From Candidatus Peribacteria bacterium (GTDB lineage Bacteria > Patescibacteriota > Gracilibacteria > Peribacterales > Peribacteraceae), in contig JBEPVF010000003.1 in assembly GCA_041691135.1 (NCBI GenBank), forward strand, positions 32,001-96,000: a stretch of DNA of 64,000 bases, written 5' to 3'. Both the position numbers and the translations under genes were made by a program. The notes under the pieces are model-generated. The model worked only from the letters and a program-made list of their open reading frames with translations. It did not search any database and was not told the DNA's origin. The number at the start of each line of letters is the position of its first letter. Positions within the stretch are counted from its first letter, which is position 1. This document shows positions 29,679 to 45,024 of the stretch, one piece after another.

Positions 29679-30350
29679 CTACTTCAGAGTGAAAAATGAG
29701 TCGCCCGTATCGCTTGCAATGAGCTGAGTTATAAACGGTTTAGAATAATCTGATTGGGTTCCGCTCGTGTCAGGCGACAGGATTTTTTCGCCGTCAAATT
29801 TATCATACCCATCGGTTAAAATATCCACAGGACCTTCGAGACCATTACTTGGCCTCTTGTCGCGTATCAAGAAAAGCACTTTATAGTGTCCGCCAGGAGG
29901 CGCTTGCACAGATGTATCAAGCCCGCCCCAATGCTGAAGTTTTTCGGGGTGCCAGACAAAATATGTTGCCGAAAGGTCAGTAACTCCCGTTATATAACCT
30001 TCAATTAAGCCATCGGGTTTGAGTAAGTATAGTTCTTCAAGTGTGTCTTTTGTTATTTTCTTCTTAAGCGTTTCGCTGAGTGTAAAACGAATAGTAATGT
30101 CAGATGTCATGCTAAAGTTTTCTTCGTCGTTTGGGTACAAGATAGAAATATCAGGAGAATGCATGGTGGGCTGAATTGTTATTGATGCCTGTGTACCTGA
30201 TTGCATTGCCTCAGTGCTTGCAGAAAACGAAGAGATGGAAGAACTAGAGACAGCATCCTGTGTAACGAACACTGATTGCTGTTTTTGACAGCTGATGAGC
30301 AGTAAAAGCGGCACAATGAGCAAAAATCTTTTCAAGCGAGAGTGAGTCAT
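29679..30350 (-). CDS. putative lipoprotein
   Basis: MTHSRLKR..LLLISC lipobox and Ser-rich linker. Confidence 0.7.
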   Translation of the reverse strand: MTHSRLKRFLLIVPLLLLISCQKQQSVFVTQDAVSSSSISSFSASTEAMQSGTQASITIQPTMHSPDISILYPNDEENFSMTSDITIRFTLSETLKKKITKDTLEELYLLKPDGLIEGYITGVTDLSATYFVWHPEKLQHWGGLDTSVQAPPGGHYKVLFLIRDKRPSNGLEGPVDILTDGYDKFDGEKILSPDTSGTQSDYSKPFITQLIASDTGDSFFTLK

Positions 30351-30390
30351 AAATAAAGTCGGGGAACTATGACAACCGTGATGTGTGGTT

Positions 30391-31584
30391 CTAGGCGTGT
30401 ATATCCATGAGTATGGCGTTACTTTTGTTCGGGAGAAGCGCAAAGAAGATGATAGAGACAAGAGCGCATAGTGCGGCGAAGAGAAATGTGGCTGAAGAGC
30501 CGATGCTCGACCACAATAATCCGCCAATCAATGATGCAAAAAATGTGGCTATGCCCATAAGCATTTGCATCGTTCCGTAAGCTCCTGCGGCTTTTTCTTT
30601 AGCAATAAAGTCACTTGCGAGCGCTTTGGATATGCCATCGGTGAGTGCTATGTATCCTCCGTAGATTGCAAAAAGTGGCCAGATTGCCAATGAATTGGTC
30701 GTAAAAGCAAAGCCAAGATACACGAGTATGTAGATCATAATCCCAAGAAGCATCACCTTTTTGGCACCCAAACGGTCACTCACTTGTCCTGCGGGGACAG
30801 AAAGCAAAGAGTAGACGGCGTTATAGACGACGTAGGCAAGTGTTACGGTAATGAGGCTCATTCCAAGATTCTTTGCCTTAAGAATGAGAAACGCATCGGA
30901 GCTGTTTCCTAGAGAAAAGATAAAAAGACCGGCGAGCAGGAACTGAAATTTTCCTGTAAAGCCATCAAAGGAGAAGTTGAAGACGGTTGTGGATGCTTGG
31001 GGCACGCGATGTTTTTCTTTTATCAAGAGAAAAAGGAAAATGCTTCCCAAAGCGGGAATGGCCGCAATCCAGAGGACAAACCGAATGTCGTAACCGGAAT
31101 GTAATAAAAGAACGGCAATGAGTGGGCCAAATACTGCTCCTGCTGAGTCCATGGCACGATGAAGACCAAAAACCAGACCACGATTGTTCTCGTTGGAGGC
31201 ATCAAGCAACATAGCGTCTCGTGCGCCTGTTCTCAGTCCCTTTCCAAAACGGTCTACCGTTCTTCCCAATAAGACAAGTGGCCATGTTCCACTAAGCGCA
31301 ATGATGATTTTGCTTATTGCTGAACTTGAATACCCGGCAACAACGAATGATTTTCTTATGCCGAGCTTGTCCGAAAGACGCCCAAAGATGCCCTTAAAAA
31401 TCGATGCCGATCCTTCGGCAATTCCTTCAATCAATCCAACGATTGCCACGGGCGCACCAAGAATTTGCGTGAGGAAAATCGGTAAAATGGGGTAGAGCAT
31501 TTCAGAGGCAATATCGTTGAAGAAGCTTACAAAACCCAAGAGCCAAACCTGACGAGGAATCTTATTTTGAAGAATAGTTTCCAT
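30391..31584 (-). CDS. MFS transporter
   Basis: About 12 TM segments; SFFNDIASEM, GRLSDKLG.RK, DRFGKGLR, HRAMD. Confidence 0.92.
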   Translation of the reverse strand: METILQNKIPRQVWLLGFVSFFNDIASEMLYPILPIFLTQILGAPVAIVGLIEGIAEGSASIFKGIFGRLSDKLGIRKSFVVAGYSSSAISKIIIALSGTWPLVLLGRTVDRFGKGLRTGARDAMLLDASNENNRGLVFGLHRAMDSAGAVFGPLIAVLLLHSGYDIRFVLWIAAIPALGSIFLFLLIKEKHRVPQASTTVFNFSFDGFTGKFQFLLAGLFIFSLGNSSDAFLILKAKNLGMSLITVTLAYVVYNAVYSLLSVPAGQVSDRLGAKKVMLLGIMIYILVYLGFAFTTNSLAIWPLFAIYGGYIALTDGISKALASDFIAKEKAAGAYGTMQMLMGIATFFASLIGGLLWSSIGSSATFLFAALCALVSIIFFALLPNKSNAILMDIHA

Positions 31585-31657
31585 AGAAAGATGTTAGCAG
31601 TGATTGGTCTGCTTCATCATTTCTTTTTCGTCCACTAAGAGCTGACATGCAAAAATC

Positions 31658-32104
31658 TTATTCAGACTTTGTGAGCCTAGTCATATTCTGATGTGCTTCT
31701 GTAATGGAAGCATTAAGAGTCGTTGCAATTGGATCATCTGGCTTCAGACCCAATAGATATTTGAGGTATTGTATTTTAGCTGCATATATTTCGGCAGGAG
31801 CCTCTTCTTCTTCATTATCGAGTAGTATTCCTCCCAATCTTTGTATATTGCGGAGTGCTTCCTCTATCTTGAATAAGAGAGCGAAGCGAACTGCTGGATC
31901 TGTTGCTAAAGCGAGCTCTTGCTCAAAATATTCGAGACGAAGTTTCCACATCGCAACAGCAGGCTGTAAGCCGTCTGTTGTCGCATTGATTGTATTTATA
32001 TCAATCTGTCCCTCAAAGTATTGGACTGTAAGTGTGCGTCCCGCATGAAGAGCCTCGTCTGTAAGGTTGTTTTGTTTTGGAGATTCGATAGCGTCAGAGG
32101 ACAT
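31658..32104 (-). CDS. hypothetical protein with two short internal helical repeats
   Basis: KLRLEYF..ELAL..DP and KIQYL..LLGL..DDP; TTGACA-type promoter upstream. Confidence 0.6.
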   Translation of the reverse strand: MSSDAIESPKQNNLTDEALHAGRTLTVQYFEGQIDINTINATTDGLQPAVAMWKLRLEYFEQELALATDPAVRFALLFKIEEALRNIQRLGGILLDNEEEEAPAEIYAAKIQYLKYLLGLKPDDPIATTLNASITEAHQNMTRLTKSE

Positions 32105-32324
32105 GAAGATACAATAATGTTTAATTTATAATCTGTCAATGTATCGGCTTGCTGGAATCTAGTACAACTGTGATGAGTGCTTCTAGGAGTTTGTGTCCAT
32201 GACTTTATAAACAACTTTCTATGATTCCCATCAGTTCGTGTCGAATTCCGATTATCCGTTTTGCTTTAAAACAGCTCAAACGGCTAAATAGGCTATTTTG
32301 CGAAAATATGATATAATATTCATT

Positions 32325-33338
32325 ATGACGCATCCTCTTCAACCTGAACGTCCTTCCGATCTTCCAGTTGCTCCGGCCAAAGAGACACAATCGCCGGTCT
32401 TATCGGAGAGAGAGGTGGTAGCAGAAGGCATGAAAGAATTATTGCGTACTGAAACCATTACAGATCCTACTGACCAAAGAATCCTGAACGCTGCTTCTGT
32501 TTTTCTTCAAACTCCATCCTTAGATCGTGCATTGGTTGAAAAGCATCAATCGAATGTTGCGGAAGTGGTGGCCGGTTATGAAATGCAGCAAATAGTGGTG
32601 CCGAATGAAATTCTGGCAATCCATGATCAGCTTGGTCGCCTGCATCAGGAGATCATGAAAGATGCAGAGAAACACCTTGAGAAGGAGCCCCTCACGTCCG
32701 TGCAGCTATTAGCGAAAGTACAAAACCTGGATTGTCATGACAAGCCTTTTGAGCGCAAAAATAACGATAAAATTGCGGAAATGGTTGGTCTTATGGAACG
32801 TTTAGCTCGTTCTTATTTGAAAGACTTGGAGGGGGAACTTGCGAAGGCCACGCCCGATATTGCTGCCAGTAAGAAATTGATGAATTTGGCCTACCAACAG
32901 GCGCGACTCCTTGAAATGGGCAATGCTAATAACGCTACAGCCATGCAAGAGCTGAAGGAGTGGCAGGTATCAGTGGTTGTGAATTATCCCCAAGCAATCG
33001 CGCAACTAGCTCAGACGTATGTCGATGCCATCAACAAGGATGTTGCAGAGCCAAAATCAGAGCCCATTATGCTTAGACAATGGATAGGCTTAGCTGTGGG
33101 TTTTGATCCTAGCCTTGCCCAGGAATTGCAGGAAAAATATCTACAAGCGATCCATAAAAATTGCATGTACTTTCTTACGCAGGCAGAAGCAGAGCTTCGC
33201 AAAGAGCGGCCTGACTTTGCGGCGATAGAGCGGTATATTATTGTTCCACCCAAGTATTACACAGAGCTAGCCGTAGGAAGCGGCATTCCTGAAAAAGTAC
33301 AGGAATTACAGCAGCTCCTTGAGGCTCGTCGTAAGTAG
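32325..33338 (+). CDS. hypothetical alpha-helical protein
   Basis: 337-aa ORF preceded by TGaTATAAT; internal repeat L...E.EL.K..PD.AA. Confidence 0.7.
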   Translation: MTHPLQPERPSDLPVAPAKETQSPVLSEREVVAEGMKELLRTETITDPTDQRILNAASVFLQTPSLDRALVEKHQSNVAEVVAGYEMQQIVVPNEILAIHDQLGRLHQEIMKDAEKHLEKEPLTSVQLLAKVQNLDCHDKPFERKNNDKIAEMVGLMERLARSYLKDLEGELAKATPDIAASKKLMNLAYQQARLLEMGNANNATAMQELKEWQVSVVVNYPQAIAQLAQTYVDAINKDVAEPKSEPIMLRQWIGLAVGFDPSLAQELQEKYLQAIHKNCMYFLTQAEAELRKERPDFAAIERYIIVPPKYYTELAVGSGIPEKVQELQQLLEARRK

Positions 33339-33367
33339 TAAGAGGAGGGCAAGCAGAACCTCGAATG

Positions 33368-33387
33368 TGGAGCGGGTTACTGGAATC
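33368..33387 (-). repeat. tRNA-Gly 3'-end remnant (att-like)
   Basis: Minus strand GATTCCAGTAACCCGCTCCA versus tRNA GATTCCCGCTACCCGCTCCA. Confidence 0.7.
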
Positions 33388-33410
33388 TATGGCAATCAAG
33401 ATGCGTGCGT

Positions 33411-33977
33411 CTAGGAGTTTGTAGCCGTGAGCGGAGCATATCGTAGGATGATACCGCCCGTCTTGAGTGGGCGATCCTCTAGCAATGTAAATTTCTGGGA
33501 GGGGACACCCGATGGGAAGAGAGGATTTCCTTTACCCAGAATCACTGGAGCAACGAGAAGTCGGTACTCGTCGAAAAGCCCTTCTTTGGTCAGGGTTTGA
33601 GAGAGGTTGCCACTACCGAAGACGAACATGTCGCCATCACCCTCCTCCTTCAGCTTCGGAATCTCTAGCGCCGCATCCCGCACGATCTCCGTATTATTCC
33701 AATCGGCAGTCTGAAGACTGTGTGAGCAGACAATCTTGCGAATGCTATTCATATATTCTGTCGTTTCGCCTTCGTCCTTTGCGGTCTGCCAATACGCCGC
33801 CATGCCCTCATAGGTTGTTTTCCCAAAAACGAGCATATCCGCATTTCTTAGTTGCTCGAGGCCAAACTGCTCCACTTCGTCATTCCAAATAACATTGTGA
33901 AACGATAGGTCCCATTTCTTTTCACCCTCGAAGTACCCATCGAGTGTGATGACATTCCACATGATAAGTTTTCTCAT
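33411..33977 (-). CDS. dihydrofolate reductase family / RibD C-terminal domain protein
   Basis: TLDGYF, FGKTTY, GSGNL, FDEYRL, LGKGNPLF. Confidence 0.9.
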   Translation of the reverse strand: MRKLIMWNVITLDGYFEGEKKWDLSFHNVIWNDEVEQFGLEQLRNADMLVFGKTTYEGMAAYWQTAKDEGETTEYMNSIRKIVCSHSLQTADWNNTEIVRDAALEIPKLKEEGDGDMFVFGSGNLSQTLTKEGLFDEYRLLVAPVILGKGNPLFPSGVPSQKFTLLEDRPLKTGGIILRYAPLTATNS

Positions 33978-34076
33978 ACAGATAGACAGAAACAACTGCA
34001 CAAGTGTACATCCTTAGTGGTTGTATTTCCACTTACCTGTACAAAATAAAATGACTTTCATAAGCCATGAACTAGT

Positions 34077-34093
34077 TGGAGCGGGATACGGGA
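34077..34093 (-). repeat. tRNA-Gly 3'-end remnant (att-like)
   Basis: Minus strand TCCCGTATCCCGCTCCA versus tRNA TCCCGCTACCCGCTCCA. Confidence 0.7.
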
Positions 34094-34098
34094 GCTTA

Positions 34099-35085
34099 TC
34101 AGGTGCCAGTTCGAACTTCTTCGTTAGGGATCAAGTGAACTAATGCAAATGACAACGCGCTTATATGCTCATAAAGTTCATGCTGTACTTCTTTCACAAT
34201 GTTATTCCCTTCTTTAATGGAAAGAGAAGGATCAATAGAAATCGTCAATTGAGCATGTAGCTCGTGGCCGATCCATCTGGCCCGTACATCGCGGATATTT
34301 TTCACACCTGCTACATGCTTTGCTGCATGCTCAAGTTCATCGAGGATCCCAGCTTCAACTCCATCTAATGCACGGACAAAGACGGTTTTCATTGAGTCCC
34401 ATACAATAAAGAAGATCGCGATTGTAATACCAAGTCCAATGACCGGGTCGGCGAGTGGATAGCCGAAGTAGACGCCTACAGCTCCGATTAGGACGGCAAG
34501 GCTTGTCCAGCCATCGGTGCGGGCATGGTAGCCATCCGCAATTAGCGCAGCGCTGTGAATTTGTTTCCCCACACGAATGCGGAAAACTGCGACAGTTTCA
34601 TTTCCCAAGAAACCAAGAACAGAAGCTGCTAAAACGGCTCCTATGTGTGATATGGATTGCGGGTGAAGAAACCGATTAATTGCTTCGTAGCCGGCAGTCA
34701 GAGCGCTGAAAAGAATAATGAGGACTACTGCCATGCCCGCCAGATCTTCCACGCGTCCGTAGCCATAGGAAAAGCGTTTAGTGGGCTTGAGCCTGCTAAT
34801 AGAAAATGCAATGCCGAGCGGAATGGCAGTCGATGCGTCCCCAAAATTGTGGATGGTATCTGCAAGAAGAGCAATGCTCCCCGACAGAAAAACGACCATA
34901 ACCTGCAGGCAGGCCGTGACGAACAAGATAATAAATGACCATTTCACTGCCCATAATCCTTTCTCAGATGAAATAATCGACGGATCGATAGTGCCGTGTG
35001 CATGTCCGTGATCGCCAGTAGGTCTATGGCTATGTGAATCATGAGCGTGACTATGATCATGATGATCTTGCCGTAGAGAGGTCAT
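34099..35085 (-). CDS. cation diffusion facilitator (CDF) transporter
   Basis: His-rich N-terminus, ADTIHNFGD, YGYGRVED, ADGYHARTD. Confidence 0.93.
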   Translation of the reverse strand: MTSLRQDHHDHSHAHDSHSHRPTGDHGHAHGTIDPSIISSEKGLWAVKWSFIILFVTACLQVMVVFLSGSIALLADTIHNFGDASTAIPLGIAFSISRLKPTKRFSYGYGRVEDLAGMAVVLIILFSALTAGYEAINRFLHPQSISHIGAVLAASVLGFLGNETVAVFRIRVGKQIHSAALIADGYHARTDGWTSLAVLIGAVGVYFGYPLADPVIGLGITIAIFFIVWDSMKTVFVRALDGVEAGILDELEHAAKHVAGVKNIRDVRARWIGHELHAQLTISIDPSLSIKEGNNIVKEVQHELYEHISALSFALVHLIPNEEVRTGT

Positions 35086-35167
35086 AAATATTCTTTAAGA
35101 AGAAAGTGCGTTACTTTGATATGGTATACATTATCGAGGATGTAAGTGCAGTGTTTGTTTGTTTCAT

Positions 35168-35241
35168 TGGAGCGGGTAGCGGGAATCGAACCCGCATCCT
35201 CAGCTTGGAAGGCTGATGTACTACCACTGTACGATACCCGC
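35168..35241 (-). tRNA. tRNA-Gly (TCC)
   Basis: GCGGGTA acceptor stem, anticodon arm TCAGC-CTTCCAA-GCTGA, GGTTCGATTCC, encoded CCA. Confidence 0.96.
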
Positions 35242-35331
35242 AGAGCACAGGGATTATACCGAAGTAGTGATGAAGAGAAAGGCTCTAAGATGAATATTTG
35301 GCATAGATATCGAGGGTGGTATCATGTTCGC

Positions 35332-35751
35332 ATGCCTGACATTAAGAGCATTACTGTGGAAGCAACCGTAGAAGCACCCATTGCGAAAGTATGGCAATAC
35401 TGGACCGAGCCTGAGCACATCATGCAGTGGAATAACGCTTCGGATGATTGGCACACACCCAGGGCAACTATGGATTTACAAGAAGGTGGCCGGTTTAACT
35501 CTCGTATGGAAGCGAAAGACGGTAGCGAGGGATTTGATTTCAATGGAGTGTTCACGAAGGTCGTACCCCACAAGCAATTGGAGTACACAATGGAAGGAGG
35601 CCGCACAGTCTCGATTACTTTCGATGAGCGAGATGGAACAACCCACGTTGTCGAAACCTTTGAAGCAGAAAACGAGAATCCTTTAGAAATGCAGCAACAG
35701 GGATGGCAGTCGATTCTCCATAATTTCAAGACCTACGTCGAAACGCATTGA
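35332..35751 (+). CDS. SRPBCC/AHSA1-like protein
   Basis: APIAKVWQYWT.PEHI..WN, RMEAKDGS.GFDF, GWQSIL. Confidence 0.9.
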   Translation: MPDIKSITVEATVEAPIAKVWQYWTEPEHIMQWNNASDDWHTPRATMDLQEGGRFNSRMEAKDGSEGFDFNGVFTKVVPHKQLEYTMEGGRTVSITFDERDGTTHVVETFEAENENPLEMQQQGWQSILHNFKTYVETH

Positions 35752-35825
35752 TTGCTAAGAACGCTTACTAAAGCCCGAATGTCTGCCCATATTGACATTA
35801 TTTTAAAATGTATTATATTTTTCAC

Positions 35826-36416
35826 ATGGCTGAGGCTGCCCCAAGAGAAACGGCCGGAGGTTTCCCAGTCGAACGAATTAACGCAATTTTAATTGCGGAC
35901 CAAATTGCCGATATAATCCTTACACAACGTCCTCAGCTTGCGGGGGCAATTTTTGCAAGACGGTTAGCGAGAGAAACATTTGTAGGTATTGCAAAAGCAG
36001 AATCCAATGCTCTTCAGGAAATAGGGGCTAAAACAGACGCAGTAAGATTTAGTGTTGTTCAAAGGGTGTGTAACAGTGGATTAGCTTCAGAGCTGGGAAG
36101 CAGAGTGAAAAGCGAAATTCGTTCTCGCATGATGAGGAAAAGACCATTCAATCCTGAGGGTCAAGCAAAAGCGGCCAAGGCTACACGTATTCATGAATGG
36201 ACAAATGAAGATAACGCGGAACTCGTGCGCCTTGCAGAAACTATGCTCCACAGGATCGGGTCACACACGGGCATGCCGGATTGGAAAAGCATTGCAGAAA
36301 TCATGAACGACAGATCCAAAACAAGTTTTACAGCTGCGCAATGGAGAGGCCGTTTTCAACATCTCCAAAAATACAATCCAGCCACACCGGCTGCTGATCA
36401 AGAAAATATCCGGTAG
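35826..36416 (+). CDS. hypothetical protein with C-terminal Myb/SANT-like domain
   Basis: WTNEDN..L ... DWKSIAE.M ... TAAQWRGRF. Confidence 0.65.
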   Translation: MAEAAPRETAGGFPVERINAILIADQIADIILTQRPQLAGAIFARRLARETFVGIAKAESNALQEIGAKTDAVRFSVVQRVCNSGLASELGSRVKSEIRSRMMRKRPFNPEGQAKAAKATRIHEWTNEDNAELVRLAETMLHRIGSHTGMPDWKSIAEIMNDRSKTSFTAAQWRGRFQHLQKYNPATPAADQENIR

Positions 36417-36456
36417 CCGATTGATAACGCCTCCTAAAATCTGATACAGTCAGGGC

Positions 36457-36891
36457 ATGCCAATGAATCCTGTTGTTCACTTCGAAATGCCGTCCGGCGA
36501 TCAGAAACGCATGGTCGATTTCTATTCAAATGTGTTTGGATGGAAGACACAACAGTTGGGTCCCGCGATGGGGGACTACGTCGTCGTCACGACGTCCGAG
36601 TTGGATGAGAAAGGTTTTCCAACCAAGCCGGGAAGAATCAATGGCGGATTTTACAAGAAAACGGATGACAAAATATCGCAGGCTCCGTCGGTGGTTATCG
36701 CGGTCGACGATATTCGTGAGCACATGAAGAAAGTCGAAGCAGCCGGCGGCAAAATACTCGGTGGACAGGTAAGCGGCGAGCCCGATGACATCCCCGGTAT
36801 CGGTTTGTACGTCTCCTTCGTGGATACGGAAGGCAATCGTGTCAGCATGATCCAGCCGTCGATGGGCATGGAGATGCACAAAGAAGCGTAG
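36457..36891 (+). CDS. VOC/glyoxalase family protein
   Basis: VVHFE, FYSNVFGW, INGG, VEAAGG, DTEGN. Confidence 0.92.
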   Translation: MPMNPVVHFEMPSGDQKRMVDFYSNVFGWKTQQLGPAMGDYVVVTTSELDEKGFPTKPGRINGGFYKKTDDKISQAPSVVIAVDDIREHMKKVEAAGGKILGGQVSGEPDDIPGIGLYVSFVDTEGNRVSMIQPSMGMEMHKEA

Positions 36892-36968
36892 TCACCGCGT
36901 ATAAATGGGAACCTATTTAGCGGTTGTTTTTTACTTATACATCAAAATACACCTGATACACTTGTGCC

Positions 36969-37427
36969 ATGAGAATACGCCGGGCACGGGATACAGATTA
37001 TGCCGAGATTGCCCGCTTGCGCAGGCAGACAATTCGCAGCGTGAACTCCAAAGATTATCCGGAAGACGTCATTCATAGCTGGTCAGCCAAAGCGGGTGCG
37101 CGAAGTTTTAGGGAAAGTGCCGATACATGCAAACGATGGGTTGCGCTGGAAAAAGAGAAAATCGTCGGTTTTTGCGAACATTCCTTTGAGTGTGAGCTCT
37201 CCAGGATTTATGTACACAAAGATGCTCTACGGAAAGGGGTTGGCTCTCGATTGCTGGGAGTTGCTGAAGCGTCGCTTCAAAAACAGGGCTGCAAAGTAGT
37301 CATCCTTGAATCAACCATCACCGCCAAAGAATTTTACAAGAAAAATGGATACAAGGTTTTGTCGAAGACTTTTTATCAAGAAAAAGAGAACGAGCCCGTC
37401 TACAAAATGTCCAAAAAGCTGTCATAG
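36969..37427 (+). CDS. GNAT acetyltransferase
   Basis: IYV....RKGVGSRLL, A..FYKKNGY. Confidence 0.9.
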   Translation: MRIRRARDTDYAEIARLRRQTIRSVNSKDYPEDVIHSWSAKAGARSFRESADTCKRWVALEKEKIVGFCEHSFECELSRIYVHKDALRKGVGSRLLGVAEASLQKQGCKVVILESTITAKEFYKKNGYKVLSKTFYQEKENEPVYKMSKKLS

Positions 37428-37478
37428 AATCTCTTTTAGCAGCTCTGGTATCAACGTACTATAGCTGCCCTTTCGCCC

Positions 37479-38930
37479 ATGCTTATGTCTATGAATAGCG
37501 ATACTCATAATAGCCGCACTCGTTGGATTGCGCTGATTGTTCTCTGTCTTGGCTCACTGATGATCGTGCTCGATACGACCATCGTGAATGTCGCGTTGCC
37601 GTCGATCAGACAGGATCTTGGCTTTTCCGAAACATCGCTCGCGTGGATCGTGAATGCATACATGCTCACATTCGGCGGATTCCTCCTACTGGGTGGTCGG
37701 CTTGGTGATCTGTTCGGTCATCGCAAACTCTTCCTGATTGGCATCGTTCTGTTTGTATTCGCGTCACTCGCTTGTGGCATGGCGAATTCACGGATATTGC
37801 TCATAGCGGCGCGGGCGGTACAGGGACTCGGCGGTGCGGTGGTGTCTGCTGTCGCATTGTCACTGCTCATGAATATGTTTACTGAGGAAGGGGAGCGAGC
37901 CAAAGCTATGGGCGTGTATGGCTTCGTGTCTGCTGGCGGCGGAAGCATCGGCGTGCTGCTCGGCGGCGTGCTCACGAGCACGCTCAATTGGCATTGGATT
38001 TTTCTGGTGAATATTCCGGTCGGTATTCTCGTCTTCATTCTTTCGCTCCTCATACTCCCGGCTCCGCAAAACCTTGCTACCAGCAGGCACATCGATGTGG
38101 CCGGTGCGGTTACCGTCACCACGTCGCTCATGCTGGCCGTGTATGCGATCGTGAACGGCAACGGGGCTGGGTGGACTTCCGGCATTACTCTCGGCTTACT
38201 GGCTGCAGCCGCGCTGCTCATGGCGCTTTTTGTGTGGATCGAATCGCGCATTCATTCGCCACTCGTACCGCTCAGTCTGTTTCGTCTGCGCAATGTGACT
38301 GTCTCGAATATCGTCGGTGTCCTGTGGGCCGCAGCGATGTTCGCCTGGTTCTTCCTGTCCGCTCTCTATTTGCAATTGGTTCTTGGCTACAGTCCGCTGA
38401 TGGTTGGCCTGGCGTTCCTGCCCGCCAACTTGATCATGGCTGCATTCTCTCTCGGCCTGTCGGCCAAGATCGTTATGCGCTTTGGTATCCGTGGGCCACT
38501 CTCGATCGGCTTATTCCTGGCGGCCTCCGGTCTCGCATGGCTTGGACGAGCGCCTATTGGCGGGCACTACGTTCTGGATGTGCTGCCGAGCATGATCGTC
38601 CTCGGCGTCGGCGCCGGTACTGCGTTTAACCCGATGCTCCTCGCTGCCATGAGTGATGTTCCGCCTGACGAATCCGGTCTGGCCTCAGGAGTCGTGAATA
38701 CGTCGTTCATGATGGGCGGTGCTCTCGGACTCGCAATCCTCGCCAGTCTCGCCGCCGCACACACCAGCAGTTTGGTCGCTTCTGGCACCGATCAACTGGT
38801 TGCACTCACCAGCGGGTATCACATCGCATTCTTCGTCGGTGCCATCTTCGCCGCTCTCGCCGCGACACTTGCTGCTGTCTTATTGCGCAAAACAAATGTA
38901 GTAGCTGATGGTCACGTGGGAGGCATTTGA
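37479..38930 (+). CDS. DHA2 (EmrB/QacA-type) MFS efflux transporter
   Basis: LDTTIVNVALPSI, GGRLGDLFG, ARAVQGLG, WHWIFLVNIP. Confidence 0.93.
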   Translation: MLMSMNSDTHNSRTRWIALIVLCLGSLMIVLDTTIVNVALPSIRQDLGFSETSLAWIVNAYMLTFGGFLLLGGRLGDLFGHRKLFLIGIVLFVFASLACGMANSRILLIAARAVQGLGGAVVSAVALSLLMNMFTEEGERAKAMGVYGFVSAGGGSIGVLLGGVLTSTLNWHWIFLVNIPVGILVFILSLLILPAPQNLATSRHIDVAGAVTVTTSLMLAVYAIVNGNGAGWTSGITLGLLAAAALLMALFVWIESRIHSPLVPLSLFRLRNVTVSNIVGVLWAAAMFAWFFLSALYLQLVLGYSPLMVGLAFLPANLIMAAFSLGLSAKIVMRFGIRGPLSIGLFLAASGLAWLGRAPIGGHYVLDVLPSMIVLGVGAGTAFNPMLLAAMSDVPPDESGLASGVVNTSFMMGGALGLAILASLAAAHTSSLVASGTDQLVALTSGYHIAFFVGAIFAALAATLAAVLLRKTNVVADGHVGGI

Positions 38931-38950
38931 AAGAAATAATTCTATGGTCT

Positions 38951-38981
38951 TCCACCCAGCGCCCGCGAGGGGCTGGGTGGA
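38951..38981 (-). terminator. hairpin downstream of the 75-aa small gene
   Basis: tccacccagc...gctgggtgga; core resembles the hairpin at 39438-39468. Confidence 0.55.
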
Positions 38982-39000
38982 GAGACAGGATCGATGGTGG

Positions 39001-39228
39001 TCATTTGCCCTGGTTTTTCTTGTGCTCATCCCACTGTTGCTTGAGAACCATTGCCCGCAAAGCAGACTGGCTTTTTTCGTCCAACTGAATCTGCTCCGCC
39101 TGAGAGACTTGCTGAGTTGGTGCTTCGGAAGGCGACGAGGTTGCGTACCATATAGCGCCCATTGCGACTGCCGCACCGGCCAGCATGCAAGCCACCACGA
39201 TAGCGGCGCTCTTTTGTGGAATCGTCAT
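39001..39228 (-). CDS. small single-TM protein (75 aa)
   Basis: GAGGAG Shine-Dalgarno before ATG 39228; MTIPQKSAAIVVACMLAGAAVAMGAIWYATSSPSEAP... Confidence 0.7.
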   Translation of the reverse strand: MTIPQKSAAIVVACMLAGAAVAMGAIWYATSSPSEAPTQQVSQAEQIQLDEKSQSALRAMVLKQQWDEHKKNQGK

Positions 39229-39294
39229 TCGGTGCTCCTCAAACAGACGTAGGGATCTCCGCCGACGCCGACGTGGCGATCGCACAGAGCTTCT

Positions 39295-39338
39295 GACTGC
39301 AGCCTCTTGAGCACATGAATACTCAAAAAGCTGCAGTC
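39295..39338 (-). promoter_or_regulatory. 20-bp 5'-leader RNA hairpin, copy 1
   Basis: gactgcagctttttgagtat-tcat-gtgctcaagaggctgcagtc; fully paired with 4 G-U on the minus strand. Confidence 0.75.
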
Positions 39339-39437
39339 TGGCGTATTTACCAATCGATCCTGTCAATGATCTCTCGAAACATATACGTATCAAGAAAGCC
39401 TATTATAGAATAATATTTAAATAAAGCAATGTTTGAT

Positions 39438-39468
39438 AAAAAGCCAGCACCCGCGAAGGGTGCTGGAC
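39438..39468 (-). terminator. intrinsic terminator of the 44-aa gene
   Basis: ccagcaccc-ttcgc-gggtgctgg-cttttt on the minus strand. Confidence 0.75.
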
Positions 39469-39492
39469 AAAGGACAGGACGACAGCGGTGGT

Positions 39493-39627
39493 TCATTCGA
39501 CTGTTTCGGTCGGAGCCGGTTCTGGCGCCGACTCCACGGCGGAGAAATACATGATGCCGCCGATGACTGAGGCCCCTAGTACGATGAGGCCTACAACAAT
39601 CAGCAAAATTTTTTTCCAGGAGAGCAT
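39493..39627 (-). CDS. small single-TM protein (44 aa; not in the ORF track)
   Basis: Hand translation MLSWKKILLIVVGLIVLGASVIGGIMYFSAVESAPEPAPTETVE*; GGAGG Shine-Dalgarno upstream, terminator downstream. Confidence 0.75.
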   Translation of the reverse strand: MLSWKKILLIVVGLIVLGASVIGGIMYFSAVESAPEPAPTETVE

Positions 39628-39674
39628 CCGCGTTTCCTCCGAAGATCATTTTGAGACCGACGTGATAACTACGC

Positions 39675-39718
39675 AACTGCAGCACTCTAGATACACCTAT
39701 ATCCAGAGCGCCGCAGTC
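39675..39718 (-). promoter_or_regulatory. 20-bp 5'-leader RNA hairpin, copy 2
   Basis: gactgcggcgctctggatat-aggt-gtatctagagtgctgcagtt; fully paired with 5 G-U on the minus strand. Confidence 0.75.
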
Positions 39719-39822
39719 CGATGAGCTCACCTGTCTATCCTGTCAATGAACGCTTGAAACTATGTGTCTCAAGAACGCTTATTATAGAATACTATTCAAC
39801 AAAGACAATAATTGATGTGCCT

Positions 39823-40860
39823 TCACAACTCGATTCCCAGTTCTGCACCCACCTCTTTAATTGCTTCTGTAACGTGATGCAAAACAGTCGCGCCGTCTGC
39901 GTTATTGTCGAAGTCGCCTTGTATGCGCCATTTGCCCTGTTCGATATATACCTGCACTCCCATGCTCGCTACCTCACTGCGTTGTAGCCGTCTGCCGATT
40001 TGCGAGAGTACGGCAAAGCGGGCAACAGGATCGGTATGGAACTGCGCTGGATGAACAGGCACACCGTATCTCTGTGCCAGCTGCGTATGTAGAGGGATAT
40101 CTTCCTGCAGGTATTGCGTTATAAAGCCCGGTGCATCGGCTCCCGAATATTTTACTTTTCGCTCCAACGTCACCGGTTCTTTTTCTTGCTCGAACAATGC
40201 TGTCATCTGCTGACGTTGCGGGAGGGTAATCGACGCGAGTTCAGCATCGTAGAGCGGATCGACCTCATTGTGTACCCACCATTCATAGGCAGCCACAATG
40301 TCTTTCTCTGGAACCTTCAGCTGCGCAGCGCGCTCGGAAAAGTCCGCTTGGACGAATGTCGGCCTATGGAGCAGGAACTGAGTGCTGGGATAGGAGAGCC
40401 GTTCTTTGCCCTGGGAAAAAAGAACATGCGCAGCGCTTGCGGCCACGGATGTCGCCAGCGTTTCGATTCCTTCGCTACCGGCTATGCGATTCATATACTG
40501 CGAAAACATGCGCTGAACAGACACTCCGCCCCCGCGTGAATTTATGAGTACGGTTATATCAAATCTTTTTTCCAGCAGCACCCGCAGTAAAGGTGCGGGA
40601 ATTCGTTGGTGTGATGCTTGGACACAGTTTTCTACTGTCGCCTGGATGTTTGGTTCCAGATACTGCAGTCGGTCGATTTCAGCTTGAGGAAAGTTGAATC
40701 CACACACTGGCAGGGCAGCACCAAAAGATTTGTAGGCATTGTCTCGATATCTATGAATGGCAACTTCAGCCGTATTCAAAGCAGTTGCATCGAGCTTGGA
40801 ATTAATGCACCAGAACATCCTTCCTTCAGCATCTGGGGACCGGAGTGCAATAGCAGACAT
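39823..40860 (-). CDS. divergent ClpP/S14-like serine peptidase-domain protein
   Basis: INSRGG.V, AASAA (Ser), R...PSTQFLLHRP (His), with long N- and C-terminal extensions. Confidence 0.7.
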   Translation of the reverse strand: MSAIALRSPDAEGRMFWCINSKLDATALNTAEVAIHRYRDNAYKSFGAALPVCGFNFPQAEIDRLQYLEPNIQATVENCVQASHQRIPAPLLRVLLEKRFDITVLINSRGGGVSVQRMFSQYMNRIAGSEGIETLATSVAASAAHVLFSQGKERLSYPSTQFLLHRPTFVQADFSERAAQLKVPEKDIVAAYEWWVHNEVDPLYDAELASITLPQRQQMTALFEQEKEPVTLERKVKYSGADAPGFITQYLQEDIPLHTQLAQRYGVPVHPAQFHTDPVARFAVLSQIGRRLQRSEVASMGVQVYIEQGKWRIQGDFDNNADGATVLHHVTEAIKEVGAELGIEL

Positions 40861-40949
40861 AATAAAATTAATTTAAAACATTATAGTAATTTAGTCAATA
40901 ATCTTCATTTCATGACGATACATTTACGACTGCATTTTATGCTGACACT

Positions 40950-40986
40950 AAAACCGGAGGCTCGTCTTTCGACGAGCCCCCTGGTT
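40950..40986 (-). terminator. terminator hairpin downstream of the 390-aa gene
   Basis: ggctcgtc-tttc-gacgagcc core with flanking aacc/ggtt. Confidence 0.65.
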
Positions 40987-41016
40987 CTTTTCTACGGCTG
41001 GTTGCCCCCCAGGGGC

Positions 41017-42189
41017 TTAGGCGATGAGGCCCTGCCGCTTGAGGGCGGCCTCGGCGACGGCTGTGTGCCACACGGCGGTACCGGTTTTGCCCTGACGGAT
41101 CACGGTGTAACCCGTGCCGCCCGAGTTGGGGTAGTTAGCAGCGGATGGATCGACGATGGCGGGATTCCCGTTAACGTTGGTCACGACCACGCCGAATTCC
41201 TTGTGCCAAGGTTCGTCCATGTAGTGGACGCCACCCATGGCCGTCACCGCCCGAACGAAGATCCGGTTGGCGTCCCGGATCCGAACCCATTGCCCCTTGG
41301 TGAATGACGCTCCGCCGTTGTAGCCGATTTGGCGGAAGTGCTCTGTCAGACGGGGATCTTCCTTGATCTTGGCGTGCAAGACGTCGAAGTTGCCCTCGTC
41401 TTCTGTGAACAGCAATCCCGTCACTGTGGTGTCGGGGTAGTCAAACGGGACAGGGCTCATGATCCATCCTGCCTTGTCGATGATCATGCCGTCGAAGGCT
41501 CCGCCTCCGTGCACGATGTGCGAGGCAGGCATCGACACACCTGCGTCGATGCCTTCACGCAGGTCGAGGCAGGCCAGGATGCCTGCGTATTCCTCGACCA
41601 GCGCAGTGCTGACGGGGTCGCGAGGGTCGTTGGCGTCGCGGAGCTGGCCCACGAGGTCAGCCTGCGAGCTGAGACGATCGACGAGCTGCGCGAAGTTATT
41701 GTCTTTCGTTGGACGCGGCCGCGAGAAGATGCGATCAGCCTTGCGGCTGGAGAGCAAAATCTGTGCCGGAGTCAGATCACCGCCGTCACCAACGATTTGC
41801 AGGAACGTTTTCTGATGGCCCGCACGCTGGCGGGCCGGACGCCGGAGGACTTCGAAGGCGCAGTAGGCGAACTCGCCATCCGAGGCCTCCTGAATGAGAG
41901 CATCCATGCGCTCGATGCCGCGAATGACGGTCTCAACGCCAATGACTTTGCCATTCTTGACACCACCACCCAGCTTCATGCTGGAGTTGGCGTTGGCGTA
42001 GATATCGACCCTGCCCTCGTACACCGGTCGCGTCATGCAGCCGGTGAGCTCCGCCATCACGACAGTGTCGTTCTGGGGGAGCAGCTGAACGTCCGTGTAG
42101 CCGTCATCATCATCCATGATGCCTTCCTTGGCCTTGTCGAGCGGGGTCGTCCGCCAATCCTTGACGGGAACCAGATAGGACTTTCTCAA
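41017..42189 (-). CDS. hypothetical protein (390 aa)
   Basis: GGAGGTGA Shine-Dalgarno before a TTG start; GC-rich third positions; own terminator. Confidence 0.8.
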   Translation of the reverse strand: MRKSYLVPVKDWRTTPLDKAKEGIMDDDDGYTDVQLLPQNDTVVMAELTGCMTRPVYEGRVDIYANANSSMKLGGGVKNGKVIGVETVIRGIERMDALIQEASDGEFAYCAFEVLRRPARQRAGHQKTFLQIVGDGGDLTPAQILLSSRKADRIFSRPRPTKDNNFAQLVDRLSSQADLVGQLRDANDPRDPVSTALVEEYAGILACLDLREGIDAGVSMPASHIVHGGGAFDGMIIDKAGWIMSPVPFDYPDTTVTGLLFTEDEGNFDVLHAKIKEDPRLTEHFRQIGYNGGASFTKGQWVRIRDANRIFVRAVTAMGGVHYMDEPWHKEFGVVVTNVNGNPAIVDPSAANYPNSGGTGYTVIRQGKTGTAVWHTAVAEAALKRQGLIA

Positions 42190-42371
42190 GAGTCACCTCC
42201 ACTGAATCTGCGCTTCCGTTCAGGTAACTCTCTCCGCCACAGCTTTTTGGTTTAAAAAACCAGCCGATGGCGAAAAGAACTTTGTTATTTTCACATAAAA
42301 TGTTATAAATGTCAATATATGCCAATAAAATGCACATATTGGCTAAAATGAGTGTTTTAAGCATTCCACAG

Positions 42372-43133
42372 TTAGGCATCCATTCTTACCTCTTTAGTTC
42401 CTCGGTGTTCTATATCTCCGGCCAGAATAATGTAATCGCCGACAAATTTGACGATGATCTCTTTGCCCGTTGGCTGTGTAATCGTGAATGACGATTCGCT
42501 GCTCCTGTCGTTAAGTACTGCCGCCAGTGCAATGCTGCCCGAGCCGCACGATGTTTCGTGAATCAACGTATCGGTGTCGCGCACGTACACGTACGGGTCG
42601 ATCACTACCGTGTTGCCTTCTTCCCGTGCATAGATCACGCCGACGGCCGGCAGATGTTTGTAGTCTTTGATCAACTCCTGGGTCAGTTGTTCGTTCGGCT
42701 CGGCCCAGCATAGGATGTGCGTGATACCTTTGAGTTCCACGATGGAGCTATTTTCGTCTACATGATCAATGTTCTGTATCAATGACAATGGCAGGTGTAC
42801 AGAACTGTCTGTGGGAGAGGCGAAGGCAGGGATAAGTTCATCGATGCCTGAAGTCCGCAGCGTGATGCGATCTTTACCGATTTTGTTGGCCCAGTAGAAG
42901 GCAGTCGAGCGTGTGGCATTGCCGCAGAATTCTCCGCCCATCATCTGCAGCTGCACGTCTATCTCACCGGTCGGGTCAGTCTGCAGAAAACCCACTTGTT
43001 CGATCTCCGGATATTCCTTCATGATCGTACTCGCCACCTGCGCCCGGTCTTCGGATGCGATGGGTATTTCGACGAGCGCCGTGGTATTGCCGCCCGGCCA
43101 CAGTATCTGAAAGGGGATGGTCGATGGTGCCAT
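42372..43133 (-). CDS. PLP-independent amino-acid racemase/epimerase (DapF fold; histidine racemase CntK-like)
   Basis: PGGNTTALV, EQVGF, MMGGEFCGNAT, ETSCGSGS; both catalytic Cys present. Confidence 0.8.
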   Translation of the reverse strand: MAPSTIPFQILWPGGNTTALVEIPIASEDRAQVASTIMKEYPEIEQVGFLQTDPTGEIDVQLQMMGGEFCGNATRSTAFYWANKIGKDRITLRTSGIDELIPAFASPTDSSVHLPLSLIQNIDHVDENSSIVELKGITHILCWAEPNEQLTQELIKDYKHLPAVGVIYAREEGNTVVIDPYVYVRDTDTLIHETSCGSGSIALAAVLNDRSSESSFTITQPTGKEIIVKFVGDYIILAGDIEHRGTKEVRMDA

Positions 43134-43138
43134 AGTTG

Positions 43139-44761
43139 TTATAGAGATGCGCAGGGGGCAATCTTTTCGCGCAGGTTGGTATGGCGCGTGATGTCCTCCG
43201 CGGAAATGGTGAGGAGTTCTTTATTGCGTTCGGCTTCGGGATAAATGATGGAATACAGTTCGGGCATCATCGGATTCATCGCTTCTGTCAGCGAGATATT
43301 CTTCGATTCCTCGACGAACAGCTGCCACCAATTTTCTTTGCCGTAGAGCAACAGGTCGATGCCGGTTGCCGGCACGAGCTCGCCGGCGGCAGTCTCGAGG
43401 AATGCCACGTTCACGTCGCCGACAATCTCTTTGGTCTGGGCGCGGGCACAGACTTCGATACTGCGGTACTTGCCGCGATCCACCTGCATCTTGATGTAGG
43501 CATTCTTCATGAAGGTGAGGTAATTCACCTGACTAAAGCCGCCGAGGCATTTGAGACCGTAGTAGAAGCACAATACGGTGTACACAAGCATGCTGCTCGG
43601 GATCAATTCCTTGCTTAAAAGTCCCTCACGAATGGCTTCCGGTGTGATGTCGTACGAGTATTTGCCATCGTCGGTCACCAGTTTGTTGCCTATTTTCTTC
43701 AGGCCCATTCGGTACCGTTCGCCCTTGGGCAGTGCCCAGAACATGTACGTTCCCCAATTGTCGGCAACGGAGAATGTTCCGGTGATACCCTGGAAATACT
43801 CATTGATGAGCGGATCACACTCTGGATCGAACAGGAAGTGATTGATCGTTGTGTCTTCGTTGAGGTGAAATTCTAGGATCAGCTGCGACACGATGCTCTC
43901 GATTTCCAGATAAACAAGGTTCGGAACGCGCGTTGTTCCTTTGCTACTGCCCAGCAATTTTTTCCACAGCGTGTAATTCGTCTTCGTCACCTGGTCGCCG
44001 TAGGATTTGCAACTCAAGATGTCATCTTGCTCATAAATCTCTGCAAAAATGTCGTTGAATTTGTTGGCAGTCGCCTGATCCATGCAGCCGCTCTTGACCC
44101 TTTCGGCGATGCCTTTGTGTAAATTCTTTAGGTCGTTCTTGTCGTATGGCTTGAAGTTATAGACGGGGCACAATCTGTACTGAGCTGCAAAAAACGCAGT
44201 TGAGTTAAAATGTGTACTGCCATCATCGGCCTTACTGTGGAATACCACACCGCGCGGGAAGGATGAGTTGTTTTGCGAGACTGCCGCGCAGGCCAGAACA
44301 ATCACGTTATCGAGTGTTTCGTTGTATTCGCCGAATGGTGTTGCAATCAGCAGGTTGGAATTGATGAAAAACGGATGCGTGAGTGGACCATGATGGTCAG
44401 CTGTACTCACGAAGTAGTACTGACTCAATTGTTTGACGACGCTGGCCGCCACTTTGGGTCCAAGTAGGCGCGAGGTTTCCTTTTCTACAACAGATAACAG
44501 TTGCTCCTGTCGCAGGGCGATCGGCGGATTCAGGTTCACATCGATGTAATCTTTGGCGTAGTCGTAAAGCATCTTGTGGCCATGCTTCTCCAAGATTTCC
44601 TTGAGCACGGGCTTCTTGGCCAGTACCGCGTCTTTTAAGCCGGTGAACAGTTTATCAAACGCATTCTCACTGAGAGAACTGCCGGTAAGTTCCATACAGG
44701 AAACATGGCCGGTCGCGTCGGTAGTTCCTTCGCTGATAAGGCTAGAGGTGGCTGGTCCCAT
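43139..44761 (-). CDS. hypothetical protein (540 aa), putative enzyme co-transcribed with the racemase
   Basis: 5-nt gap to the racemase gene; STADHHGP and LIPS...LGGFSQVNYL motifs; start uncertain. Confidence 0.75.
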   Translation of the reverse strand: MGPATSSLISEGTTDATGHVSCMELTGSSLSENAFDKLFTGLKDAVLAKKPVLKEILEKHGHKMLYDYAKDYIDVNLNPPIALRQEQLLSVVEKETSRLLGPKVAASVVKQLSQYYFVSTADHHGPLTHPFFINSNLLIATPFGEYNETLDNVIVLACAAVSQNNSSFPRGVVFHSKADDGSTHFNSTAFFAAQYRLCPVYNFKPYDKNDLKNLHKGIAERVKSGCMDQATANKFNDIFAEIYEQDDILSCKSYGDQVTKTNYTLWKKLLGSSKGTTRVPNLVYLEIESIVSQLILEFHLNEDTTINHFLFDPECDPLINEYFQGITGTFSVADNWGTYMFWALPKGERYRMGLKKIGNKLVTDDGKYSYDITPEAIREGLLSKELIPSSMLVYTVLCFYYGLKCLGGFSQVNYLTFMKNAYIKMQVDRGKYRSIEVCARAQTKEIVGDVNVAFLETAAGELVPATGIDLLLYGKENWWQLFVEESKNISLTEAMNPMMPELYSIIYPEAERNKELLTISAEDITRHTNLREKIAPCASL

Positions 44762-45024
44762 TAGTGGAGAGGGGAATATGCAAAACGAACCGCCGTTCCA
44801 GATTCGGGGTGGAATCGGACGATTGCTTGAGCGGTTGTCTTCGAGGCAGGGGGTGTCCTCATAAAAATTGACAATCTAGTTTAGTGAAGGGCAAGCCGAA
44901 ATTCAATGGTTCCTTCAGGTTTTCTTTAATTGCCCAAGCGGGCAAGTTTTGGCGCTTAAACTGGTAAATGTCGCTTAACTTTTAGCGTGGGCTGGTTCGA
45001 TAGTTCCTGTTATAGTTCTGAACT

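Follow-up and report, generated by a model that had tools for sequence, protein, structure and literature searches.

The DNA studied here (the window) is a stretch of 64,000 nucleotides (nt) from a Candidatus Peribacteria bacterium (contig JBEPVF010000003.1, positions 32,001 to 96,000). The genome it belongs to, called G000 below, comprises 1.74 Mb on 35 contigs and is 92% complete. On the minus strand, the sequence from 38700 to 40100, read together with the list of open reading frames (ORFs), contains two tandem units of about 380 bp each, A and B. Each has a promoter-like site, a 44-nt hairpin, a Shine-Dalgarno (SD) sequence, an ORF for a protein with a single transmembrane (TM) span, and a terminal hairpin. 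An initial annotation, made from the letters of this stretch, had described them as a candidate RNA-regulated system of small membrane proteins, and its account of the layout (the two units, the hairpin coordinates, the SD sequences, the ORFs and the shared blocks) is borne out throughout. The present analysis concerns the hairpin, an RNA structure under selection, and a complementarity between the two ends of the message that accompanies it in related genomes.

Layout of the two units

All features described in this section are on the minus strand. Unit A starts at a promoter-like site, TTGTCT-16-TATAAT (39781-39808), which agrees with 10 of 12 consensus positions and is identified by consensus match only. 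The predicted transcript opens with a small hairpin of 8 bp, CUUGAGAC...GUUUCAAG (39753-39773), present in both the minimum free energy (MFE) and the centroid folds, and analogous small hairpins precede the leader block at other loci. Next comes a block shared by the two units, TCATTGACAGGAT (39749-39737), most of which falls inside a segment here called the 5' arm (GACAGGAUAGACAGGUGAGCUCAUCG, 39719-39744), predicted in both folds to pair with 39500-39473. The 20-bp hairpin with its 4-nt loop follows directly (39675-39718; -32.0 kcal/mol, z -8.5), and scores 53.1 bits against the covariance model R1 described below. Downstream of it are a second shared block, CACGTCGG (39657-39664), recognised from the sequence and the unit alignment, and then the SD sequence GGAGG (39640-39636) and an ORF, from the ORF list, for a single-TM protein of 44 amino acids (aa; 39627-39493 including the stop codon), these two together occupying 39493-39640. 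The stop codon is overlapped by the 3' arm, UCGAAUGAACCACCGCUGUCGUCCUGUC (39473-39500), located by fold, duplex and sliding-window tests. The unit closes with an intrinsic terminator found by the terminator scan, a 9-bp stem followed by a U-run (39437-39466).

Unit B repeats this order. Its promoter-like site, TTGCTT-16-TATAAT (39402-39429), was read from the sequence and aligns with that of unit A; it was not listed by the promoter scan because its -35 element matches at 3 of 6 positions only. The promoter elements originally proposed are present in both units, unit B having the weaker -35 element. There follow a small 5'-end hairpin (39372-39395, again in the MFE and centroid folds), the 5' arm, GACAGGAUCGAUUGGU...GCC (39339-39364), which pairs with 39009-38984, and the 20-bp hairpin with a 4-nt loop (39295-39338; -32.1 kcal/mol, z -7.7; 55.2 bits with R1). 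The block CACGTCGG recurs at 39268-39275 on the same evidence as in unit A, and is succeeded by the SD sequence GAGGAG (39240-39235) and the listed ORF for a 75-aa single-TM protein (39228-39001 including the stop codon; SD and ORF together 39001-39240). The 3' arm, GGC...ACCACCAUCGAUCCUGUC (38984-39009), which emerged from the same three tests, again overlaps the stop codon. The GC-rich terminal hairpin (38952-38980) is convergent with an MFS gene ending at 38930. It is related to the terminator of unit A, as judged from sequence, alignment and fold, and lacks a U-run. The relationship between the two terminal hairpins claimed at the outset is therefore real, but only that of unit A has the U-run of a terminator.

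Measured from the predicted start to the ATG, the leaders are about 147 and 166 nt long. When the two units are aligned, the mean column identity is 72%, and conservation is highest in the promoter and early leader and lowest in the coding region. The block TCATTGACAGGAT is exact in both units, and taken alone it lies within chance expectation once mismatches are allowed. The units are tandem paralogues; each is probably transcribed on its own and encodes a small single-TM protein.

The two proteins have ATG starts, one hydrophobic span each and acidic, Pro-rich tails. They are paralogues, with 36% identity over 39 aa and a pairwise E value of 2e-6. A search for homologues in a collection of 5.8 billion proteins returned self matches only, the 44-aa ORF being present in the public protein collection solely as the window's own product. 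Pfam and PHROGs gave sub-threshold matches only, including a weak match of the 75-aa ORF to DUF6023, under the Pfam cut-off. The similarity of a membrane protein found behind the hairpin in one related genome (G022) to these peptides is not significant.

The leader hairpin and its family

Both window hairpins have 20 uninterrupted pairs and a 4-nt loop, and none of 200 shuffled sequences folds as well. The opposite strands of hairpins A and B reach only -18.2 and -19.2 kcal/mol. The coding strand folds better than its complement because G-U is the only kind of non-Watson-Crick pair in it: there are five such pairs in hairpin A and four in hairpin B, and no A-C pairs. The sequences differ at many positions while pairing is complete, and five pairs are changed on both sides, which confirms the original observation of stems that diverge yet stay paired with G-U as their only wobble. 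Uninterrupted stems of at least 20 bp occur at six loci in G000, two of these being the window hairpins, and both pattern and covariance-model searches put the copy number of the hairpin in this genome at two, namely units A and B.

A pattern made from the lower stem only was searched in 200 genomes of the same family, followed by covariance models R1 and R2. The pattern matched on both strands in three further genomes (G045, G139 and G145); it also gave two single-strand matches that look like chance, and a reversed control pattern gave two matches. All three genomes have one orthologous gene 94-108 nt downstream of the hairpin, which is on the strand that makes its wobbles G-U. The upper stem, which was not part of the pattern, is paired in G139 and G045 by means of a different sequence, and in G145 has 4 of 11 pairs mismatched. 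Model R1 added G078 (two loci), G067, G189, G211, G022, G017, G135 and G136. A further two genomes came from model R2, namely G060, with two tandem units, and G309, a member of another family of the class. Some matches were left out: G122 and G123, matched by the pattern with an unpaired upper stem; G044 and G173, model matches with E values of 0.024-0.028 that by eye lie inside apparently coding sequence; and G142 (E 0.044), a plausible hairpin with no clear downstream ORF. The family then amounts to 17 loci in 13 genomes including the window units, that is, 15 copies beyond the window in 12 related genomes with one or two copies each. A covariance-model search, which had been suggested as a check of the first reading, does recover more copies of the hairpin in related genomes.

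In an alignment of 14 copies, 91.4% of the cells are paired, and 16 of the 20 pairs show changes on both sides. None of 500 shuffles reaches the observed values, and slid controls are 25-50% paired. At all 13 loci compared, the sense strand has the greater stability, its advantage over the antisense strand averaging 9.7 kcal/mol. Within the stem, G1, G8, C9 and G36 are invariant and U14, G15, C37 and U38 nearly so, and a 1x1 mismatch recurs at stem pair 13, in 8 of the 14 copies. The covariation over these copies and the strand asymmetry strongly support selection on the hairpin as an RNA structure, acting on the sense strand, as had first been suggested from the window pair. The distance from hairpin to start codon varies from 25 to 120 nt across the loci and no consistent U-run is found behind the hairpin, so that neither masking of the SD sequence nor attenuation is evident. 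An attenuator role was dropped on account of the inconsistent U-run, and the thermosensor function offered as one possibility in the initial annotation is unlikely, the hairpin lying 47-120 nt from start codons.

The genes behind the hairpin are varied. Five are orthologs encoding a xylose-isomerase-like TIM barrel of 388-392 aa, PF01261 (in G139, G078, G135, G145 and G045; L309-L313), and those of G189 and G211 encode two other PF01261 proteins, so that this fold accounts for 7 of the 17 linked genes, in three subfamilies and with lengths of 355-392 aa. The downstream genes in G017, G309, G022 and at the first locus of G078 (G078a) have, from their N-termini and by eye, a secreted, lipoprotein-like or membrane-anchored look, and those in G067, G136 and (twice) G060 are orphans with no Pfam family. 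The cargo other than TIM barrels includes proteins of 140-380 aa. In total, at least 11 unrelated gene families carry the design in one lineage, and the proposal of a system dedicated to small membrane proteins thereby fails: homologous hairpins, with the upstream block, stand before TIM-barrel enzymes, before proteins of secreted or lipoprotein-like appearance, and before orphans. For the RNA module the small proteins are cargo and not the defining partner, which corrects the first reading of the locus. The hairpins are thus not tied to small TM genes, but neither are they a genome-wide repeat of the REP type (repetitive extragenic palindrome) that the initial annotation had considered, two copies being present in G000.

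The tandem pair in G060 (L120/L122, G060:C2:127670-129473) deserves a separate description. Immediately behind a tRNA gene, two paralogues that match no Pfam family follow each other at a distance of 1027 nt, and the promoter-like site, the leader block and the hairpin are the same at each of them. The encoded protein has 225 aa, and the reading frame of the second gene can be followed over 136 aa, where L120 ends.

The related genomes that bear the hairpin are probably Candidatus Peribacteria, members of the candidate phyla radiation (CPR). The order holds this one family only, and outside the family the hairpin was found in 1 of 135 genomes of the class. The TIM-barrel ortholog is present in 5 of the 200 family genomes, with the hairpin in all five. 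The 80 public loci examined for this protein (L039-L118) comprise 78 planctomycete-type records, with 72-83% identity, and two labelled 'Candidatus Peribacteria'; the hairpin is at the gene in both of the latter records, as against none of the 78. On sequence identity, this gene looks like a recent transfer between Planctomycetota and Peribacteria-type CPR.

There are no DNA relatives of the window units among 40 relatives, and their three-part pattern has no match in the metagenome collection. A general palindromic pattern matched 103 metagenome stretches, and the 80 of these that were listed are mostly unrelated conserved marine sequence or unrelated hairpins; among those 80, L140 alone is a family member, identical to the hairpin of G045. 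In viral contigs 77 stretches matched the pattern, none of them with a family-like full stem. As a separate observation, a 42-nt sequence with the same GACTGCAGC...GCTGCAGTC ends but an unpaired centre is conserved on dozens of metagenome contigs (L123-L202), several of them labelled marine, and is unrelated to the hairpin family.

As for the surroundings of the units, homology with the same-genus genomes G003 and G001 ends at about 38855, where the MFS gene ends. Judged from the four same-genus genomes searched, units A and B and the genes that come next are specific to G000. These next genes (window 38931-45000) encode a ClpP-like protein of 345 aa (39823-40860) followed by proteins of 390, 253 and 540 aa, of which the 390-aa and 540-aa ones have no Pfam or PHROG family. 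Window 30001-36000 has a G+C content of 0.44-0.46, against about 0.53-0.55 elsewhere in the window, and adjoins cation-efflux, GNAT, glyoxalase and MFS genes.

Complementary arms at the two ends of the message

Just 5' of the hairpin, the leader is complementary to the stretch of 3' untranslated region (UTR) that separates stop codon and terminator, a feature on which the initial annotation was silent. When units A and B are folded at full length (z -6.8 and -6.5), MFE and centroid structures alike pair the 5' arm with the 3' UTR, the paired 5' segment being that between the conserved block and the base of the hairpin. The arms differ in sequence, with AGACAG facing CUGUCG in unit A and CGAU facing AUCG in unit B. 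The unit B duplex has a z of -2.8, with 1 of 200 shuffles as good.

The same complementarity is found beyond the window. In a test of the leader against the 160 nt nearest the stop codon, no more than 7 of 200 shuffled leaders did equally well in 8 of 13 loci; the G045 row was disregarded in this test, and for the comparison of arms the locus was taken from L140. A sliding-window test was also run with neutral DNA scoring, taking the 50 nt upstream of the hairpin and 76-288 overlapping windows per locus. The leader has its best complement in the window at the stop codon in 11 of 16 loci, among them unit A (first of 76) and unit B (first of 99). The 3' arm begins between -11 and +20 nt from the stop codon, and a GC-rich hairpin comes after it in all 13 loci inspected by eye. 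The arms differ between loci and match within a locus, and in the orthologous TIM-barrel loci they co-vary, with the internal loops kept the same. Wherever promoter-like and terminator-like sites are both recognisable, the arms sit between them. At the level of sequence, complementarity of leader and 3' UTR is thus robust and shown to be a recurrent, position-specific feature. Because the arms lie between promoter and terminator and co-vary with each other, we infer that selection on them acts at the RNA level.

At 14 of 17 loci the 5' arm opens, 21-35 nt ahead of the hairpin, with a block of the form [TC]C[TA]TT[GCT]. This motif was chosen after looking; for a closely related motif set, also chosen after looking and not identical to that pattern, control windows gave 1-4 of 17. 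In the window units the block reads TCATTG, and elsewhere usually CTCTTTG. A further motif chosen after looking is CACG within 45 nt past the hairpin, with 6 of 17 loci having it as against 0-2 of 17 in control windows. Two possible roles for the block were considered and rejected. A TTGACA within it has no -10 element at the proper spacing, and its distance to the hairpin varies over 16-25 nt, which does not suit sigma-70. An anti-SD role for CUCUUUG is excluded by its being missing from the window units.

Such complementarity is not general in G000, since there is no general excess upstream of its terminators: among 352 terminator-like sites, 16 score at least 22 as against 15 in the control, and 5 as against 0 score at least 26. 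An inverted-repeat census of G000 is dominated by other repeats. The longest has 82-nt arms around 541 nt, and others flank 166-551 nt (C2:155617-156320, C12:21518-21742, C8:53269-53863 and C1:268227-268832); three of the inverted repeats also top the test of complementarity upstream of terminators. Finally, 23 nt in the 3' part of the ClpP-like ORF (40025-40047) are 74% complementary to the 5'-arm region of unit B (39341-39363). This could mean that the two pair in read-through transcripts, or it could be chance.

Possible functions and known systems

On the basis of these observations, we tentatively favour the hypothesis that the module sets the fate of the mRNA, either its stability or its processing, and is a lineage-specific UTR architecture common to unrelated accessory genes. 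Along the predicted message, the order would be a small 5' hairpin, the 5' arm with its conserved block, the hairpin of about 43 nt and 20 bp abutting this arm, a spacer, the SD sequence, the ORF, the 3' arm at or just past the stop codon, and the terminator hairpin. In the full-length transcript the arms would pair to give a panhandle stacked on the 20-bp hairpin, and both ends of the message would be buried in helices (the 5' hairpin, the panhandle with the 20-bp hairpin, and the terminator). This might shield the message from 3' exonucleases and from 5'-end-dependent decay (RNase J and RNase Y), or else RNase III might be presented with a long double-stranded RNA (dsRNA) and so mature the message or degrade it. 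With the 3' arm lying over the stop codon or shortly past it, ribosomes that terminate there would open the panhandle, and this could couple stability to translation.

The ribonucleases that such a scheme would call on are encoded in G000. RNase III, at C2:451-834, is recognised by a PF14622 match of 141.7 bits that falls in an ORF of 250 aa. RNase Y and RNase J are present, and RNase E/G was not found in this 92%-complete genome; judged by gene content, the decay apparatus is Bacillus-type. The features of an RNase III substrate, about 20 bp of dsRNA and an encoded enzyme, are both there, and cleavage is a prediction from them. A processing site at the hairpin, for RNase III or another enzyme, is plausible.

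A number of observations weigh against this hypothesis. Sequence is conserved inside the stem, and stability alone gives no account of it. The presence of the leader on three subfamilies of PF01261 hints at a regulon with a specific regulator and not at general stabilisation. Copies found by covariance models are biased towards paired stems, although the upper stems of the three pattern-found copies are unbiased. For the arms, the duplex energy of unit A alone is not significant (22 of 200 shuffles are as good), and the five loci of 16 that do not rank first in the sliding-window test rank 8, 10, 17, 21 and 33. Arm mismatches (13 sense-type, 9 antisense-type and 17 transversions) show no clear bias of G-U over A-C; isolated mismatches alone number five sense to one antisense, with three transversions. 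The arm duplex is more stable on the sense strand in just 7 of 13 loci. The arms having no clear strand bias, selection on them at the RNA level is not proven. The stretch occurs in one DNA run, from a freshwater sediment metagenome, and in no RNA run listed.

A bolder version can be entertained, with considerable reserve: the conserved 5' arm, the 20-bp hairpin and the matching 3' arm may be a dedicated RNA 'wrapper' around horizontally acquired or accessory genes, including the TIM-barrel gene that is about 80% identical to planctomycete genes, which would gate expression by means of a dsRNA-recognising factor (RNase III or another protein), or may be the transcribed footprint of a new gene-cassette capture system.

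The conservation of stem bases, and not of pairing alone, leads to the first alternative, a cis-regulatory leader whose hairpin is read by a sequence-specific RNA-binding protein (less likely by a ligand) that co-regulates a small regulon of TIM-barrel sugar-type enzymes and envelope proteins. The recurrent 1x1 mismatch at pair 13 (8 of 14 copies), the conserved flanking blocks and the share of PF01261 among the linked genes, 7 of 17 in three subfamilies, would all suit such a reader. However, a long near-perfect helix with variable loops offers no obvious ligand pocket, and with 25-120 nt to the start codons and no consistent U-run, the usual routes of SD masking and attenuation are not evident. 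The PF01261 fold is expanded in planctomycetes, and its excess here may mirror the donors, given the 72-83% identity of the TIM-barrel gene to planctomycete genes. This leader-reading factor is in our judgement rather unlikely.

We consider somewhat less likely still that the arms are DNA-level inverted repeats of a mobile cassette or an invertible segment, with the hairpin as a site of recombination or of single-stranded DNA structure. The arms, lacking a clear G-U bias, leave room for such a cassette, and their outermost block is the most conserved part. The cargo is accessory (the planctomycete-like TIM-barrel ortholog is in 5 of 200 family genomes), units adjoin tRNA genes in G060 and G078, the window units are at the edge of a segment absent from same-genus genomes, and two of the five TIM-barrel loci have no flank in common with the others. 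Against this, the two strands of the hairpin differ strongly in stability, with the sense strand better in 13 of 13 loci, an asymmetry that transcribed RNA explains and duplex DNA does not. The arms are inside the apparent transcription unit, from promoter to terminator, and the homology of the G000 units and of the orthologous loci spans the 5' hairpin or promoter through the terminator and does not run from arm to arm. Identical internal mismatch loops are kept in three orthologs, unlike the outcome of gene conversion. No target-site duplication was seen by eye at four loci, only two copies exist in G000, and no recombinase gene is on the window's contig, the serine and tyrosine recombinase genes being on other contigs. 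A single orientation was observed, in one contig identical to the window and from one DNA run, which is weak evidence since contigs drop rare variants.

Improbable, finally, is a type I toxin-antitoxin-like arrangement as in hok/Sok or aapA/IsoA, a possibility raised in the initial annotation, in which peptide toxins would be encoded by mRNAs held inert by their fold and controlled by processing and an antisense RNA. Tandem-duplicated single-TM peptides, leaders of about 147 and 166 nt and pairing of the 5' and 3' ends would agree with it, and the SD sequences are predicted to pair with pyrimidine tracts inside the ORFs (unpaired probability 0.02 and 0.16, against 0.24 and 0.47 after codon shuffling). 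This sequestration is not significant, however, with 10% and 7% of shuffles as low; the end pairing excludes the SD sequence, and removing the 3' arm leaves its predicted access unchanged. No plus-strand sigma-70-like site was found in 38700-40000, where a weak or unusual promoter could escape the scan. The same architecture surrounds enzymes of 355-392 aa and proteins of 140-380 aa, and the peptides themselves have acidic, Pro-rich tails, and no homologues of them were found.

If the module does set mRNA fate, its interest goes beyond this locus. CPR bacteria cannot be grown alone, and to our knowledge almost nothing is known of post-transcriptional control in them. A compact, covariation-backed motif with no Rfam match, combining a long leader hairpin with UTR-UTR pairing around whole genes, would give a handle on how reduced genomes stabilise, process or regulate selected messages, given that it is carried by unrelated accessory genes. 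On the apparently planctomycete-derived gene, it is possibly also a handle on the domestication of foreign genes.

Comparison with Rfam 15 places the hairpin in no known family. For window 36000-43000 the sole match at E <=1 is mir-49, with 25.5 bits against a gathering threshold of 60, and the 12 related loci give tRNAs and one sub-threshold plastid motif over a tRNA only. No paper on Peribacteria with such a hairpin was found, nor, judged from listings, a comparable element in the literature on CPR cis-regulatory RNA motifs with covariation. Leader hairpins, pairing of 5' and 3' UTRs and RNase III stems each have precedents; for their conserved combination over unrelated accessory CPR genes we found none.

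Integron attC sites have conserved R and L boxes and lie 3' of a promoterless ORF, with an integrase nearby. With these sites, and with REP elements and miniature inverted-repeat transposable elements (MITEs), the hairpin shares a conserved structure and stem base around a varying central sequence, and its presence at tandem accessory genes. As an attC site it was rejected: the GTTRRRY/RYYYAAC core is missing, the hairpin is on the 5' side of the ORF with a promoter-like site upstream of it, extrahelical bases are absent from the units tested, and there is no integrase on the contig, the tyrosine recombinase genes being on other contigs. A REP or MITE repeat was likewise rejected, with two copies in G000, one or two per related genome, and no target-site duplication by eye at four loci.

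In the processing stalks of rRNA, the 5' and 3' flanks of the 16S and 23S precursors pair. The likeness is that complementary flanks enclose a whole functional RNA and bring its ends into one helix. The flanks here differ in that they enclose protein-coding messages of 44-392 codons, in so far as the sequence by itself tells.

RNase III cuts leader hairpins in the phage lambda N leader, in the rnc and pnp leaders and at T7 R1.1. The module resembles such substrates in having about two helical turns of near-perfect dsRNA in the 5' leader together with a long-range intramolecular duplex. The known substrates are little conserved in sequence between genes, whereas the present hairpin keeps a recognisable stem across genes and genera. 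In B. subtilis, according to the account in PMC11780869, RNase III frequently cleaves duplexes that form across more than 100 nt.

As presented in PMC6733600, the hok/Sok and aapA/IsoA systems resemble the window units: the ORF is small and hydrophobic, its leader is long and structured, there are tandem or multiple copies, and the full-length mRNA has a long-distance 5'-3' interaction. In those systems, as set out in the same source, the 3' element is an anti-SD that silences the message until 3' trimming, and an antisense RNA is made opposite the leader. Here, in contrast, the arms miss the SD sequence, an antisense promoter was not found in 38700-40000, and the cargo extends beyond small peptides.

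In the hbs mRNA of B. subtilis, as described by Braun, Durand & Condon (2017, PMC5737220), a 14-bp interaction between 5' and 3' UTR modulates cleavage by RNase Y. As that description has it, hbs is an ordinary mRNA whose structured 5' UTR pairs with its own 3' UTR, in an organism that relies on RNase Y and RNase J and not on RNase E. Complementarity of the 5' UTR with the 3' UTR of one and the same message is likewise found here, by sequence and prediction. The difference is that the hbs pairing comprises 14 bp and concerns one gene (PMC5737220), whereas the arms described here are about 20-30 nt long with internal loops, and adjoin a conserved 20-bp hairpin in at least 11 gene families, an arrangement that we know from sequence alone.

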